Notes under the pieces: generated by a model | Seen by the model: the letters and a program-made list of their open reading frames with translations, nothing else | What the model was told of the DNA's origin: nothing | Databases searched by the model: none | Program-made: the position numbers and the translations under genes | NCBI GenBank assembly: GCA_047285535.1 | Contig: JBJBDC010000001.1 | Location: forward strand, 2,112,136 to 2,176,135 | Source of the DNA: Synechococcus sp. | GTDB lineage: Bacteria > Cyanobacteriota > Cyanobacteriia > PCC-6307 > Cyanobiaceae | DNA: 64,000 nucleotides | Reading direction: 5' to 3' | In this document: in pieces, positions 1,252 to 38,750 of the stretch | How positions within the stretch are numbered: position 1 is the first letter of the stretch | Layout of the letters: each line of letters begins with the position of its first letter

Positions 1252-1650
1252 ATGACGACACAGTCGACAGCAACCCAAAACCGACAGCAACGTCTTCTAG
1301 AAGAATTGCGCAGATGCGGTACCGAAATGAGTGGGCAGCAACTCCATCGTCAACTGGAGAACGGACCGAGCTCGATGGGCCTCGCCACGGTGTATCGAAA
1401 CCTCAGGCATCTCCAGCAGAAGGGGCTTGTCCGCTGCAGACATTTACCAACTGGAGAAGCACTTTATGCACCTGTTGAACATGATCGCCATCACCTCACA
1501 TGTGTTGACTGCGGCAGCACCAGAACCTTGGATCACTGTCCACTTCACGGATTGACAATGTCCAACGCAGAGCAGTCCGACTTCAAGCTGCTGTTCCACA
1601 CACTGGAATTCTTTGGGATCTGCTCAAAATGTCAACAGAAGCACCAATAG
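1252..1650 (+). CDS. zur: Fur-family regulator, zinc uptake regulator type
   Basis: GLATVYRNL helix, HHLTCVDC and CxxC motifs; closely resembles marine Synechococcus Zur as I recall it (EMSGQQLHR...RCRHLPTGEALYAPV). Confidence 0.85.
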   Translation: MTTQSTATQNRQQRLLEELRRCGTEMSGQQLHRQLENGPSSMGLATVYRNLRHLQQKGLVRCRHLPTGEALYAPVEHDRHHLTCVDCGSTRTLDHCPLHGLTMSNAEQSDFKLLFHTLEFFGICSKCQQKHQ

Positions 1651-2010
1651 ATCGGTCTTAATCTTAGGAAATAAACTCCACATAAGCCTGCGCTGAACTC
1701 CTGTTCAGCATGAAGAAATGCCTACTTCACCAATGGAAGACCAACGTGTTGATAGGGTCAGTCTACAAACAATTTCATCCACAAATTGAGCGGGTTGCAT
1801 TTGCTACATACGGGTGAGCCATCTAGACCCAAGGCTATGGATCATTATTGATATTTAACCTCTGATGTGGATTAACAGTGGTCATGACACAGGAAGGGTG
1901 GCCCCCTGGGTTGGCCTGGTTGGCACAGAGGTTTCTGTTTGAACTCTCTGCTTTCCCTCTAAACGGAGCTGAGCAGTAGGAGGCTCTTTCATCGCTTCAT
2001 CCATCAATGG

Positions 2011-2235
2011 CTAATCGGTCGTCATGGAGCTTTCCATTGGACAAACCTTGACTGCAAACCCATTGGCTTCCCTCAAGACTGACCACTGAAGCAGAGGTGG
2101 CTGGACTTGTTGTTGAGCTAGAAAACGACCTGAACGATGGAGTGAACATTCGGGTGTTGACGGATGCAAATATCGTGAGGGACTCACCCTGGCCCCAATG
2201 CAACAGGGTAACAATTTTTGCTGAACGCATTGCAC
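2011..2235 (-). CDS. Small hypothetical protein
   Basis: 74-aa ATG ORF in islet; no recognised motif; competing overlapping ORFs. Confidence 0.35.
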   Translation of the reverse strand: MQCVQQKLLPCCIGARVSPSRYLHPSTPECSLHRSGRFLAQQQVQPPLLQWSVLREANGFAVKVCPMESSMTTD

Positions 2236-2464
2236 AACCTGCTCGTGGCAACTGCCGATCGGTTGACGCCCTTGGGTCCAATCACCTGCACAAAACTAGG
2301 AACAGTTTCAAGGCTCTGTGGTCTTCGAAGCACAAGGCCTATCAATTCTCTCTCTGAACGATCAAAAAAGAAGGTCCTGAAACCGAACCGTGTAAATACG
2401 GCTGCCCCACTTCCGAGATCAGCACGACAGATTTAGACCAATCAGGTCCCACTCGGGCCGATTC

Positions 2465-2698
2465 ATGAACACAACAACACTCCAGACACCAACTGGCCTT
2501 GTCACAAAAAATGGCGAAGGTCACGGCAATGTGTATGCCAAAGAACCCCCCATGGAGTTCGCACCATCAGATGCTGGCTGGGGCTTCCACGAACGTGCAG
2601 AAAAGCTCAATGGACGCATGGCCATGATTGGATTTGTGGCTGCTCTGGCAACTGAACTCATGACCGGTGAGGGATTAATTCGCGCCATTGGACTCTGA
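2465..2698 (+). CDS. hli: High-light inducible protein (HLIP)
   Basis: AEKLNGRMAMIGF chlorophyll-binding motif followed by TM helix and TGEG. Confidence 0.93.
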   Translation: MNTTTLQTPTGLVTKNGEGHGNVYAKEPPMEFAPSDAGWGFHERAEKLNGRMAMIGFVAALATELMTGEGLIRAIGL

Positions 2699-2738
2699 GT
2701 CCGATCAAGACAACTAGCAAATCAACTGGATATGAATC

Positions 2739-2918
2739 ATGAAACTTTTCTCCGCCTTAGCAGCTCTCACCCTGATGAGTTCACCAGCACAGGCAGTCAA
2801 AGGACCTCAGGCCCCAACCCTCCTCCTTGAAAAGCTCTATTACGCAGAAGGTCGCCAACATCCTGAACACCCCGAGCATGGGTCTTTTGCAGGGCTTCGA
2901 TGTGGCGATGAAAACTAA
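2739..2918 (+). CDS. 59-aa putatively secreted protein with LYYAEGR-HxxHxxH motif (not in ORF track)
   Basis: Hand translation MKLFSALAALTLMSSPAQAVKGPQAPTLLLEKLYYAEGRQHPEHPEHGSFAGLRCGDEN*; signal-peptide-like N-terminus; clear paralog at 63021-63185. Confidence 0.8.
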   Translation: MKLFSALAALTLMSSPAQAVKGPQAPTLLLEKLYYAEGRQHPEHPEHGSFAGLRCGDEN

Positions 2919-3296
2919 AACCATGAATGAAAGCCCCTCTCGGTTTGTCGCCAAACTCGAACGCCTGAAAAAGCACCCATTGCTCTAGGGGCACCATCCT
3001 GGCCTAATCCGAGTTTATGTCTTGCCAAAAACTTGAACCAATTACGACAAATAAACGGCAAGTCCTAAACTTGCCAGAACACCCACACGAATACAGCCTC
3101 AACAATTAGTTCAATCCATCATCAATGCGATCACAATGCATTTAATCACTACTTGAAGCACATGAAGCACTACAGAGCCTCAACGCAAGAGAGCCTTCAC
3201 TTAGCACCTTGACCACCTTAAAGCCCACTGAATATTCACAGCACAGAAAACTGTTCGTCAATACATCTTTCAGACTAATATTGACATCATCATCCA

Positions 3297-3540
3297 AGAA
3301 AGATCGTTCTCTGCATTTGCAATAACAGAACCATCACTGATCGGGTAAGACACACAACAAAGCAACGCCCATAGCGATCTGATCGTCATCCAAAAGCTCT
3401 GATCACCTTGGTCGACCTCACCAGCTGTGACCTTTCCGGACACGTTGAACAAGCCCCGCTCAACAGGAGTACATCAGATCTATTCCCTGTTCTTAAGCAG
3501 CATCAAGAATGGATTGATCATCCGAGCAACTGACCACTGT
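3297..3540 (-). pseudogene. petF: Decayed plant-type [2Fe-2S] ferredoxin
   Basis: Across frames it reads CSDDQSILDAA*EQGIDLMYSC*AG/ACSTC/GKVTAGEVDQGDQSF/LDDDQIAMGVALLCV/SYPISDGSVIANAENDL; two in-frame stops and about four frameshifts. Confidence 0.9.
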
Positions 3541-3832
3541 TCAATGCAGTCATAAAGAATGATCCTATTGAATTTGAACTGAACATAAAAACTTCGATCA
3601 ATAGCTTAACCAAGCCCACTTTACAGACGCAAAGAATCAACAATCCCACACTTAATCTTATGCATTACGCACCTGCATGCGAATCATTTTAAAAATTAAT
3701 TGATGGGACAATCACAACAATAAAAATATCGCAAAATCGCCAGTTATGACAAATGCACACATCAACAGGCCCTAAGCAAGCCAAACAACTACTGTCTCAA
3801 CATTGCAACTTATAGATCACCCAGCAGTAAGC

Positions 3833-4033
3833 TCACCCACCCTCAATCTCAAAAGAATACTCAAGCAAGCAGCGAAATAGCTGATCTTTGCTTTCAGCCA
3901 AAAACTGTTGTTCAAGCGGGTCGCCGCCAGACCAATTTCGAAGTGCGTCGCTGGTCGTTTTGTAAGCCAACCGAAGAGCCTCTCGACTCAGCTGGATGGT
4001 GGCAGCGATTTCACCAGAATGATCGGAAGACAT
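3833..4033 (-). CDS. Small hypothetical protein (WxGGDPxEQ motif)
   Basis: 66-aa ORF starting 11 nt after the stop of the NblA-like ORF, probably co-transcribed. Confidence 0.7.
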   Translation of the reverse strand: MSSDHSGEIAATIQLSREALRLAYKTTSDALRNWSGGDPLEQQFLAESKDQLFRCLLEYSFEIEGG

Positions 4034-4044
4034 TGAATAACTCG

Positions 4045-4203
4045 TTATTTTTCAGAAATGACTCTTGCTGTAGCAACCTTCTGCATGAAATAAAGGTCTA
4101 GCAGTTGTCCAGCAATCTCCTTGAGTTCCACGATGTCACTCGCTTGCTGGATAGCCCCCTGCAGCCGAAGTTTTTCAAATTGAAAGTGGAGGGGCAAACT
4201 CAT
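4045..4203 (-). CDS. 52-aa NblA-like small helical protein (not in ORF track)
   Basis: MSLPLHFQFEKLRLQGAIQQASDIVELKEIAGQLLDLYFMQKVATARVISEK*; LxLxxQF start and two amphipathic helices as in NblA; NtcA promoter directly upstream. Confidence 0.6.
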   Translation of the reverse strand: MSLPLHFQFEKLRLQGAIQQASDIVELKEIAGQLLDLYFMQKVATARVISEK

Positions 4204-4225
4204 GACCAGAAAGCAGCACTGAGTG

Positions 4226-4267
4226 AATGTAAAGAATAATCAAGATCCATATGGTAGTTATTTCTAC
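4226..4267 (-). promoter_or_regulatory. NtcA-activated promoter (GTA-N8-TAC, 22 nt spacer, -10 TACATT)
   Basis: GTAGTTATTTCTAC at 4254-4267; on the minus strand TACATT (4231-4226) follows after exactly 22 nt. Confidence 0.85.
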
Positions 4268-4301
4268 CTAAAGTTCATTGCGTACTCCCAAGGCCCGGCT
4301 T

Positions 4302-4315
4302 GTAACCGAAATTAC
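4302..4315. promoter_or_regulatory. Second perfect NtcA box
   Basis: GTAACCGAAATTAC. Confidence 0.65.
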
Positions 4316-5054
4316 TACTCCAGCCCCTCTCCCTCCCCTCGCTGGCCCACTTCCTGGCTCCAAGGAGAGGCTCTGCAAAGCCACCTTTGACTGATCTCCA
4401 TGCATCAAAAGTCTTCGTAGATGGGTCGCTAACCCAGACCACTCCACTCCCAAGCGGAACTCTCTAAAACGATGCAGCCCTAGCCTGTCAAATCCCAGAG
4501 AGCGTGCCTCAACCTGAAGTCAGAGCATGCACAGAGCGCAGGAATCAACACTGACACAACTGAATTAAAGACACGTCTCTTGCCGACGCAACCACGACAA
4601 AGTCCTGATCCCTGATCGCTCTCGAACCAAACCGTTACAACGACCCGAAATGGTTCTAGCGCAAGGATTTTCCGACGACCTGCTTTCACGACCTGGATGG
4701 TTCCCATCCCCAGTCTGAAGCCTCTCAGAACCGATAACCATCCATTTTTGCAGCTGTGGCTTGCCTCAAGGCTGAGCAATGCGACCTAATCACCGCTCCT
4801 CAGCCCGTCACCACTCATCCACGCAGAACCAAAACTAGGGATTGGGTCAATGAAAGACCCCCGGATTCTTTTAGAAAGTTCAGAGGAACCATGTTTCGAG
4901 AGCTGGACCTCAGATTCATCGTTGGTTGATGACAAACCGCTAAGCACCTGGCATCAAGGTGGGTGCTGGTCGTAGATCGTCATCAATCGCTCAAGATTGC
5001 TCGCGCGACAGCGAACAAGCGAAAAAAACCTCGCTCCCTTCGCAAACGCTGGTA

Positions 5055-5228
5055 TTAATCATGGTGTTGTTTCTCCAGAAGCTCAGCCTTGAGCTCTGCC
5101 TCTTCAGTCTGCTGCTTCAGATCAAGCGCGATGTTGTGCGAAGGCTCATCCATCCTCTGCCTGCCACCATTCATCATCTCGGTGTAAGTGAGAGCCCTGG
5201 GCGTCTTTGACTCGTTCATATCATTCAT
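5055..5228 (-). CDS. Small hypothetical protein
   Basis: ATG ORF with LTYTEMMNGGRQ and a coiled-coil-like tail; start uncertain. Confidence 0.5.
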   Translation of the reverse strand: MNDMNESKTPRALTYTEMMNGGRQRMDEPSHNIALDLKQQTEEAELKAELLEKQHHD

Positions 5229-5644
5229 TTGACCTTTGGCTCCAACCCCAGCTGCTGCCAAGCCTTGATACACCGCAAGTGCTGCATGGCGACATAAACA
5301 GCCCTCAACATCTTCTCGTCAGCGTTCAGGCTGAAACAGGAATGCATGAGCTACTTCCTCACAATGTTCTCAAACATGGCCAGCAGGTTGTTGCATGCCT
5401 TCAAGTCCAACCAGATCCCACCAACAATATCTAGAAGTTCAGTCCCCTCCTGTCTTCTGACTGTTCCCATCCGAGAGCTGTCTTAAAGAGAAACTGTCTT
5501 GAAGGAAGCCAACAGCCCCACCAGACCTACAGCGCGAAATACTCAGAAATTGGAATGCCGGCCCGATGACTCACCATCGGGCAGCTCTTCATGAACGTCA
5601 TGAAGAACGTGCACAATCAAGGCTTTTTGAATGGTGGACTGAAA

Positions 5645-5716
<72 letters not shown>

Positions 5717-37811: not shown

Positions 37812-37825
37812 GTAGCACTTGCTAC
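37812..37825. promoter_or_regulatory. Perfect NtcA box between divergent ureE and ureD
   Basis: GTAGCACTTGCTAC. Confidence 0.85.
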
Positions 37826-37859: not shown

Positions 37860-38750
37860 ATGCAACGACTTGACTCCTGGCACGGCACCTGCAACCTCCA
37901 ATTCCACGCAGACAGCAGCGGTAGTCAGCACCAAGGAGGCTGTACCTCACCATTCAAGTTGATGCGCGCAGAAAGGGGTGCAAACGGGCGCTGCGAGCTA
38001 CCACTCCTTCACACTGCTGGCGGCCTCGTTGGAGGAGATCAATTGAGCATCAATTTGAACTTAAAACCAAGCAGTCGCTGCTTGATCACCAGCGTGGCGG
38101 CACAAAAAGTCTATGGATCGGTGGGCCGTAGCCAGCTCCATCCACAAGGAGTCTGGGCTCAACACAACATGGATGCGGAGCTGCATTCGGCTAGCGATTT
38201 GGAGTGGCTTCCCCAAGAAGTCGTGCTCTACTCCAATGCCTTATTTCATCAAAACCTGACGGTCAGCTTGCCCTTAGATGGATCATTTTTCAGCGCAGAA
38301 ATCGTGCGCCTGGGACGCACGGCCGCCGGCGAAACCTTGGGCAAAGGACGCTGGAGATCATCTGTTCAGCTGCGTCGCCGAACGCCTAAGGGCATTCTCT
38401 GGGAACTCGTCGACAGACTTGAACTCAGCGAGGAGGCCTTGCAAGGACCCCACGGCCTCAATCAGAAACCTGTATTCGGCAGCCTGATTTGGGCAGCACC
38501 CTTTGCTCTAGAGACAGAAATGATGAATAACCTGATAAAAGAAGCTAGGCATGATCGATGCGGACTCAAAGGCGAGATGCATTGTGGACAGCTTCACCAA
38601 GGGTTGATCGCTCGATACAGCGGTGACTCAAGCCGTGATGCCCGTTTTTGGTTCAGCAGGATTTGGGCTCTGACCCGTCAAGCTCGAGACCTTTCAACCC
38701 CAACCATTCCGAGAGTGTGGCCCTTGCAAGAAAATCCATTCAGGCCATAA
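37860..38750 (+). CDS. ureD: Urease accessory protein
   Basis: HTAGGLVGGD, AAQKVY, LEWLPQE, PRVWP. Confidence 0.94.
   Translation: MQRLDSWHGTCNLQFHADSSGSQHQGGCTSPFKLMRAERGANGRCELPLLHTAGGLVGGDQLSINLNLKPSSRCLITSVAAQKVYGSVGRSQLHPQGVWAQHNMDAELHSASDLEWLPQEVVLYSNALFHQNLTVSLPLDGSFFSAEIVRLGRTAAGETLGKGRWRSSVQLRRRTPKGILWELVDRLELSEEALQGPHGLNQKPVFGSLIWAAPFALETEMMNNLIKEARHDRCGLKGEMHCGQLHQGLIARYSGDSSRDARFWFSRIWALTRQARDLSTPTIPRVWPLQENPFRP

Follow-up and report, generated by a model that had tools for sequence, protein, structure and literature searches.

We observed that two small genes on the minus strand of a marine Synechococcus genome lie directly behind a sequence pattern typical of NtcA-activated promoters. 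They are found in a 64,000-nucleotide (nt) stretch of this genome, which belongs to a strain near CC9311 (assembly GCA_047285535.1, contig JBJBDC010000001.1, positions 2,112,136 to 2,176,135 of the forward strand; hereafter the window). The first gene, orf52 (4045..4203, minus strand), encodes a 52-amino-acid (aa) NblA-like protein of the clade-I '2955-type'; NblA is the adaptor that tags the light-harvesting antenna for degradation. The second, orf66 (3833..4033, minus strand), encodes a 66-aa predicted helical-hairpin protein that matches the family phrog_628 and carries the loop motif W-x-G-G-D-P-x-E-Q (its translation contains ...RNWSGGDPLEQQF...). The evidence presented here makes it probable that the pair is a bicistronic nitrogen-stress unit, in which NtcA drives expression of the NblA-like adaptor orf52 together with orf66.

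Read along the minus strand, the locus begins with a distal perfect GTA-N8-TAC box (GTAACCGAAATTAC, 4315-4302), followed after 34 nt by the proximal NtcA-type box (GTAGAAATAACTAC, 4267-4254), likewise GTA-N8-TAC, and after another 22 nt by the -10 hexamer TACATT (TAN3T, 4231-4226). The hexamer lies 22 nt from the orf52 ATG. An 11-nt spacer (4034..4044) separates the orf52 stop codon from the orf66 ATG, and no promoter-like or terminator-like site was seen in it. Related loci share a single block by blastn, window positions 3828-4273, whose edges lie 5 nt past the orf66 stop codon and just upstream of the proximal box. The conserved unit therefore consists of the proximal box, the -10 hexamer, orf52 and orf66. 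The first-pass annotation of this DNA had proposed an NtcA-activated pair at this position, and its coordinates, 52-aa translation and 22-nt and 11-nt spacings are all correct.

Both reading frames are real genes under strong purifying selection. We compared five orthologous loci from the same genus and, for pairs with computable synonymous divergence (dS), obtained ratios of nonsynonymous to synonymous divergence (dN/dS) of 0.02-0.10 for orf52 and 0.01-0.05 for orf66. The remaining reading frames are broken by stops in most of the five loci. Across pairs, dS ranges from 0.4 to more than 2, and it is at least 1.2 between the window and its relatives. Codon-level conservation of orf52 in relatives is thus present at the dN/dS given above, in line with the first-pass annotation. 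The same annotation had called the gene 'hidden', which does not hold: the top match of orf52 is a CC9311 'hypothetical protein' of 90% identity, so this orthologue is already annotated, and it was catalogued as NblA in a 2025 supplement (PMC12695635).

The proximal promoter is an exact match to the definition of a class II NtcA-activated promoter, which PMC9430850 describes as GTA-N8-TAC near -41.5 with a TAN3T -10 hexamer ~22 nt downstream. Setting the box centre at -41.5 according to this geometry places the predicted transcription start at ~4219, which would leave a leader of ~16 nt. We aligned the 137 nt before the start codon for six orthologous loci. The proximal box is located at -64/-65 from the ATG in all six, and the invariant columns fall almost entirely within the box (G.GTAG.AAT.ACTAC) and the -10 element (TTTACA.T). 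One of the six loci has TACAGT as its hexamer and the other five have TACATT; the leader and the region upstream of the box are unalignable. Since synonymous divergence between these loci is near saturation, the invariant box and -10 element form a clear promoter footprint. The exact class II pattern claimed at first pass is thereby borne out, as a conserved island amid diverged DNA.

The complete pattern is rare. The window contains seven simple GTA-N8-TAC boxes against 2.23 expected, a number reached in none of 100 shuffles, and a single complete GTA-N8-TAC-N22-TAN3T against 0.02 expected, with two of 100 shuffles holding one. The whole 3,025,339-bp genome has 165 simple boxes and three complete patterns (both strands, spacer N21-23), and the orf52 site is the only one of these three with the start of an open reading frame (ORF) ~22 nt past the hexamer. 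As a sequence pattern, the orf52 promoter is the most canonical NtcA-type promoter of this genome. NtcA itself is encoded here (375 bits vs a cut-off of 245). Perfect boxes upstream of ORFs were too noisy genome-wide to define a regulon, and we inspected ntcA, amt1 and glnA directly. The regions upstream of ntcA and glnA have GTG-N8-TAC-N22-TAN3T, the same geometry as at orf52 with a less perfect box; upstream of amt1, we found an imperfect box only and no clear TAN3T hexamer. As an internal control for the NtcA-site search in the window, we took a perfect box at 37812-37825 (GTAGCACTTGCTAC). It is located in the 97-nt gap between the divergent genes ureD (37860-38750, plus strand) and ureE-ureF (37762-36618, minus strand), and is likely an NtcA site of these urease accessory genes. 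Strict NtcA-type promoters also precede 10 of 21 loci of the NblA-like family, in several sequence groups (one further locus of this set is cut at a contig end). For the locus itself, NtcA binding, induction under nitrogen starvation and co-transcription of orf52 and orf66 are predicted from these sequence features. Use of either box as a divergent plus-strand promoter was considered and rejected, as no TAN3T was seen by eye at 22 nt.

The first-pass annotation had further pointed to a second perfect box 48 nt out. This box is present at that distance, measured centre to centre (4302..4315), and its sequence is perfect, but it is not conserved. It occurs in this genome alone, being absent upstream of the orthologues L002-L005, and it sits within a ~1.3-kb stretch (4274-5613) for which none of the five related loci compared has an alignable counterpart. 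In four related genomes, ~70-250 nt separate the proximal box from the tRNA-Val gene (anticodon tac) upstream of it. In the window, this gene lies at 5645-5716 on the minus strand, with the 4274-5613 stretch between it and the proximal box. No att-like repeat of the tRNA-Val end was found at the borders of this stretch. The wider region, 1650-5640, is poor in long ORFs and has a G+C content of 42-51% in 500-nt windows.

By sequence, orf52 belongs to the divergent NblA-like family of marine picocyanobacteria. Other genera have full-length relatives that are 38-60% identical, the best matches outside the genus having E values of 2.5e-15 to 1e-9, and at a loose limit of E<=10 relatives occur in 142 of 201 genomes of its family of genera. 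These proteins share the pattern ..L.L..QFE......I....D..EL..A..L......Q.AAT.WVI. A profile built from 21 members retrieved 334 cluster representatives at E<=1e-3 and 158 at E<=1e-10, and the family hidden Markov model (HMM) matches orf52 at E 5e-27. We assign orf52 to the picocyanobacterial NblA family because of two links to the catalogue in PMC12695635. Both quantitative PCR primers given there for host nblA2 (Syncc8109_1607) match exactly within a homologue, at locus L012, whose full-length identity to orf52 is 42%. In addition, Supplementary Dataset 11 of that paper lists the 52-aa CC9311_2955 as NblA, along with orthologues from six other clade-I strains.

The catalogued proteins, which include WH8109 NblA1-6 and the CC9311_2955 cluster (PMC12695635, Nature 2025), are of the same family as orf52, and the CC9311_2955 cluster is the same orthologue group. 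Sequences of this group are ~10% divergent from orf52; the genus-level orthologues are 88-90% identical, and the 52-aa length and the helix-loop-helix fold are shared. The picocyanobacterial NblA motif in orf52 reads ..L.L..QFE...L....I....D..EL..A..L..LY..Q..AT..VI, and we see no essential difference between the orf52 protein and the catalogued marine NblA-like proteins. An AlphaFold2 (AF2) model of orf52 (predicted local distance difference test, pLDDT, 93.3) places helices at residues 5-20 and 24-51, so that the 52-aa protein fits the short (about 50-80 aa) two-helix hairpin of the family. According to PMC12695635, the predicted structures of marine NblAs keep a dimeric architecture, and a general profile overlooks the nblA genes of marine Synechococcus, which usually carry several of them. 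Our Pfam and NCBIfam searches returned nothing significant for orf52 or orf66. Of the 'divergent NblA' put forward at first pass, membership of the marine NblA-like family stands; its newness does not, the orthologue group having been catalogued already.

Direct comparisons with canonical NblA (PF04485; Nostoc PCC 7120 1OJH, T. vulcanus 2Q8V, Synechocystis nblA1/nblA2) weakly agree in direction with an NblA identity of orf52. Profile alignment by hhalign of the orf52 family with 27 PF04485-type NblAs gave P 2.8e-4 and a probability of 40.7% over 21 columns, in which SLPLHFQFE of the orf52 family is paired with LSLEQQF of canonical NblA. The probability was 31.9% when a 149-row alignment was used, and control alignments with the orf66 family gave P 0.14 and 0.33. 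When the orf52 model was compared with 48,161 chains by VIA-align, 1OJH_A ranked third (Z 5.7, root mean square deviation 2.5, 51 of 52 residues aligned) and 2Q8V_A eleventh (Z 5.4), with 21 chains at Z>=5. Canonical NblA forms a homodimer with a four-helix bundle, binds phycobiliproteins and ClpC and triggers antenna degradation. It is similar in size to orf52 and, like the orf52 model, is a two-helix hairpin whose first helix is short and whose second is long. By the weak hhalign match, both would begin helix 1 with an N-terminal L-x-L-x-x-Q-F, and the two superpose over their full length, at a Z that unrelated hairpins also reach. The Synechocystis nblA1/nblA2 genes are described as NtcA-activated (PMC7865187), which parallels the NtcA-type promoter of orf52. 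The differences are that orf52 lies below Pfam detection, that helix 2 of its family remains unaligned by profile, and that its partner gene encodes an unrelated phrog_628 protein and is not a second nblA. The profile check against NblA that the first-pass annotation proposed is divided: PF04485 gives no match, hhalign a weak one over helix 1 (P 2.8e-4), and the marine-family HMM a clear one.

This genome carries four NblA-like genes of different catalogue types, and CC9311 carries five. The three further paralogues lie outside the window (G000:C1:87290-87562, 1308036-1308266 and 2455724-2455984), and the family profiles found no nblA2/0884-type copy in this genome. The nearest paralogue type of orf52 is the nblA2-type (42-48% identity), which PMC12695635 singles out as structurally closest to Nostoc NblA. 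In four same-genus genomes, we found a second match at 43-47% identity. NblA-like genes of the 0475/WH8109_4-type (L071, L072, L086-L088, L095 and L021) have another conserved upstream region, ..TTCAGAAATGTTCTGTAA.. and ..AATCGGTTGCAA..ACTAC... This region is without a canonical -10 at 22 nt, which suggests regulation other than classical NtcA activation. A marine-type NblA-like member is also encoded by the freshwater cyanomyovirus S-CRM01 as g108 (L085:2989-3252, plus strand; family HMM E 7e-16), where it is annotated merely as 'hypothetical cyanophage protein'.

The partner protein orf66 is, judging by its profile match, a member of phrog_628, a family shared with T4-like cyanophages. Residues 5-62 of orf66 align with positions 4-64 of the 66-position phrog_628 profile at E 1.1e-12. 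By tblastn, 216 of 50,697 phage records contain homologues, every one from a phage of Synechococcus or Prochlorococcus, and the 'uncharacterised partner' of the first-pass annotation is therefore no orphan. Among hosts, homologues occur in 26 of 201 genomes and 5 of 64 genera; the ESM Atlas neighbours of orf66 are unnamed cyanobacterial and viral clusters. The AF2 model (pLDDT 85.5) is a hairpin of helices 17-33 and 39-65, with the family's invariant W-x-G-G..E-Q motif located at the turn. VIA-align found generic matches for this hairpin (602 chains at Z>=5) and no NblA in the top 50 chains.

We considered two known identities for orf66. Since hhalign gave P of only 0.14 and 0.33 and the NblA family HMMs miss orf66, its reading as a second cryptic NblA was rejected. 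A reading as NblD was rejected as well: the defining feature of NblD is two pairs of conserved cysteines, four in all, including a CPxCG-like motif (PMC7865187), and these motifs are absent from orf66, whose one cysteine lies outside the invariant and nearly invariant columns of the family alignment. As described in PMC7865187, NblD is a 66-aa, NtcA-regulated cofactor of phycobilisome degradation in Synechocystis. The orf66 protein is equally 66 aa long and has a predicted nitrogen-stress expression and a genetic tie to an NblA-type gene. By this analogy, orf66 could be a functional analogue of NblD; unlike NblD, it has a W-x-GG-x-P-x-EQ loop as its signature and does not belong to the NblD family.

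Among the phage homologues, YP_007001728.1 of cyanomyovirus S-MbCM6, a small ORF annotated as 'equivalent to T4-GC_876' and located between gp53 and gp32 homologues, shares L.L.YK...W.GGD..EQ..L...K..LFR..LE with orf66; the phrog_628 match covers 58 of the 66 orf66 residues. Phage copies lie among structural or auxiliary genes; their positions are between gp53 and gp32, between uvsY and uvsW, and ahead of the large terminase subunit. Unlike orf66, they do not adjoin NblA-like genes at the four loci examined. In P-RSM1 (L083), the homologue directly follows a gene for 'ferredoxin oxidoreductase' and is near the plastocyanin and plastoquinol terminal oxidase genes, and in S-CAM4 (L082) it is near the plastocyanin gene. 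Some cyanomyoviruses thus hold the orf66 homologue among auxiliary metabolic genes.

The linkage of NblA-like and orf66-like genes is real and recurrent. We assessed 51 host phrog_628-like loci (the listed places minus one weak match inside a 407-aa open frame, plus one own-genome copy), with flanks of 1.5 kb for 20 loci and 2.5 kb for 31. An NblA-like ORF is found within these flanks at 19 of the 51. At 12 loci, the NblA-like gene is immediately upstream on the same strand, and these cover two NblA types, the 2955-type as in the window and the WH8109_4/0475-type in another genus. The other arrangements are divergent (two loci), with the orf66-like gene first (three), convergent (one), and with the NblA-like gene ~730 nt upstream (one). 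By tree subfamily, 17 of 26 loci are linked in two host subfamilies vs 2 of 25 in the third. Four phage copies cluster with the window's subfamily (support 94/85), a placement that is uncertain because of long branches.

Using a relaxed promoter pattern (one mismatch allowed, spacer 21-23, TAN3T or TAN3C), which occurs in 2.5% of random 330-nt windows of this genome, we found NtcA-type promoters upstream of 13 of the 51 loci; they fall into four sequence classes, in which relatives are not independent. In loci L069 and L070 (genomes G004 and G066), a divergent NblA-like/orf66-like pair has a single 14-nt box between its genes, one mismatch away from the consensus (GTATCAAC.GATGC, or GCATC.GTTGATAC on the other strand). 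TAN3T hexamers lie 22-23 nt from this box on both sides, and it is therefore possibly a shared bidirectional NtcA site. At L062-L070, the motif (T)GAyACGTCAAG is conserved ~50-70 nt upstream of the start codons of stand-alone and divergent orf66-like genes. The left part of this motif makes up the rest of an imperfect NtcA-like 14-mer (GTT/GTC/GCA-N8-TAC), which a TAACA(T/C)-like hexamer follows at 22 nt, and the conserved GTCAAG extension could be a site of another regulator. A complex prediction for two orf52 copies and orf66 gave no support for physical contact (score 0.02, mark 0.32) and is evidence neither way.

Based on these observations, we consider it probable that the unit works as follows. 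When nitrogen is scarce, 2-oxoglutarate-bound NtcA would bind the box at 4254-4267 and activate minus-strand transcription that starts at ~4219 and runs across both orf52 and orf66. The orf52 product would most likely act as an NblA-like dimeric adaptor that hands phycobiliproteins, and perhaps further proteins, over to the ClpC-Clp protease, and orf66 would be co-expressed as a small helical hairpin from a cyanophage-shared family. The adaptor activity of orf52, any role of orf66 and, more generally, antenna degradation by host marine NblA-like proteins are inferred.

Several results weigh against this account. PF04485 (gathering score 25 bits) gives no match to orf52 at E<=10 and nothing over its cut-off anywhere in this genome. 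It also matches none of 16 orf52 relatives, and it reaches 14 of 149 family members, all weakly (best E 0.002). In a sample of the phylum, it finds canonical NblA over cut-off in 50 of 151 genomes and in none of the three from the window's own family. The hhalign probabilities are just 41% and 32% and cover helix 1 alone. The VIA-align Z of 5.7 is tied with those of unrelated hairpins (top Z 6.7), helical hairpins being common. Foldseek of the orf52 model against the PDB returned no NblA in 48 rows and none at E<=0.001, and the family profile run against PDB sequences gave three chance-level matches and no NblA chain. In the literature examined, we found no tested function for a host marine NblA-like protein. 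Moreover, PMC12695635 reports that Prochlorococcus without phycobilisomes carry NblA-like genes and that viral NblA affects non-antenna proteins.

These last points lead to the most serious alternative, that orf52 keeps the NblA fold for another job, as a nitrogen-stress adaptor or regulator with non-phycobilisome targets and one of four specialised paralogues. Such specialisation would fit the four NblA-like types of this genome and the five genes of CC9311, the differing upstream sequences of the paralogues, several of which are without an NtcA-type promoter, and the restriction of the alignment between the orf52 family and canonical NblA to helix 1. The phycobilisome-free Prochlorococcus and the non-antenna cleavage seen upon viral NblA expression (PMC12695635) point the same way. 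However, orf52 is closest to the nblA2-type, which is the most Nostoc-NblA-like type in structure, and phycobilisomes are present in this organism, as they are in marine Synechococcus generally (both PMC12695635). NtcA control, predicted here for orf52, is also a feature of canonical nblA genes. We regard this alternative as rather doubtful. It is very improbable that the GTA-N8-TAC box is not an NtcA site and that the unit is constitutive or under another regulator. Most of the 165 simple boxes of the genome are surely non-functional, and other NblA-like paralogues have other upstream motifs, but the full arrangement of box, spacer and hexamer is expected only 0.02 times per window and occurs just three times in the genome. 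The promoter pattern is invariant across six loci with unalignable flanks, and its geometry equals that of the ntcA and glnA upstream regions.

An origin as a mobile, phage-related cassette, placed in a variable island by tRNA-Val, serving in phage-host conflict and using the NtcA box in cyanophage style, seems to us the most far-fetched of these explanations. The phrog_628 match of orf66 (E 1.1e-12), the exclusively cyanophage origin of its 216 phage records, the NblA-like gene of S-CRM01, and the many NtcA sites described for T4-like cyanophages (PMC3037559) are in keeping with it, as is the location of the unit in an ORF-poor stretch of 42-50% G+C adjoining tRNA-Val. Yet the position of the unit relative to tRNA-Val is kept in five related genomes, no integrase or att-like repeat was seen, and the phage homologues of orf66 are not beside NblA-like genes (four loci examined). 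Strong purifying selection on orf52 and orf66, together with their near-saturated synonymous divergence, argues for long vertical inheritance of the unit.

A broader proposal, going beyond the bicistronic nitrogen-stress unit, is that NblA-like and phrog_628-like proteins form a two-component nitrogen-stress module. In such a module, orf66 would act on the NblA-like adaptor as cofactor, gate or antagonist; its function would resemble that of NblD, to which it is unrelated. T4-like cyanophages would carry the phrog_628 half so that, while infecting, they could steer or block the breakdown of antenna and other proteins in the host. This proposal is built on the linkage at 19 of 51 loci, which takes at least five arrangements and involves no fewer than two NblA paralogue types, on the concentration of linked loci in particular subfamilies (17 of 26 vs 2 of 25), and on the single NtcA-like box between the divergent pairs of G004 and G066. 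We offer it as speculation that is unlikely to be right.

The NblA-like gene itself is already in print as a catalogue entry, and the core identification is not new. Marine Synechococcus were long believed to be without nblA, as noted in PMC3037559. Searches within the main text of PMC12695635 brought up nothing relevant on promoters, NtcA, operon partners or the neighbourhood of host nblA genes. Across titles and abstracts, and the main text and first supplement of that paper, we found neither an NtcA promoter on a marine host nblA gene nor a phrog_628 partner. Our literature search returned no mention of phrog_628 or T4-GC_876, and nothing was found in PMC7170224 on the NblA-like gene of this locus. 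The NtcA wiring and the phage-shared orf66 partner are thus modest additions to what has been published.

In conclusion, the divergent NblA-like family has been catalogued only recently, and this locus ties an NblA-like adaptor to nitrogen status in a concrete way that can be tested, within a coastal clade of high abundance. The recurrent pairing with a protein family found in hundreds of cyanophage genomes points to an unstudied player that may take part in the turnover of antenna or other proteins when cells starve and when they are infected.

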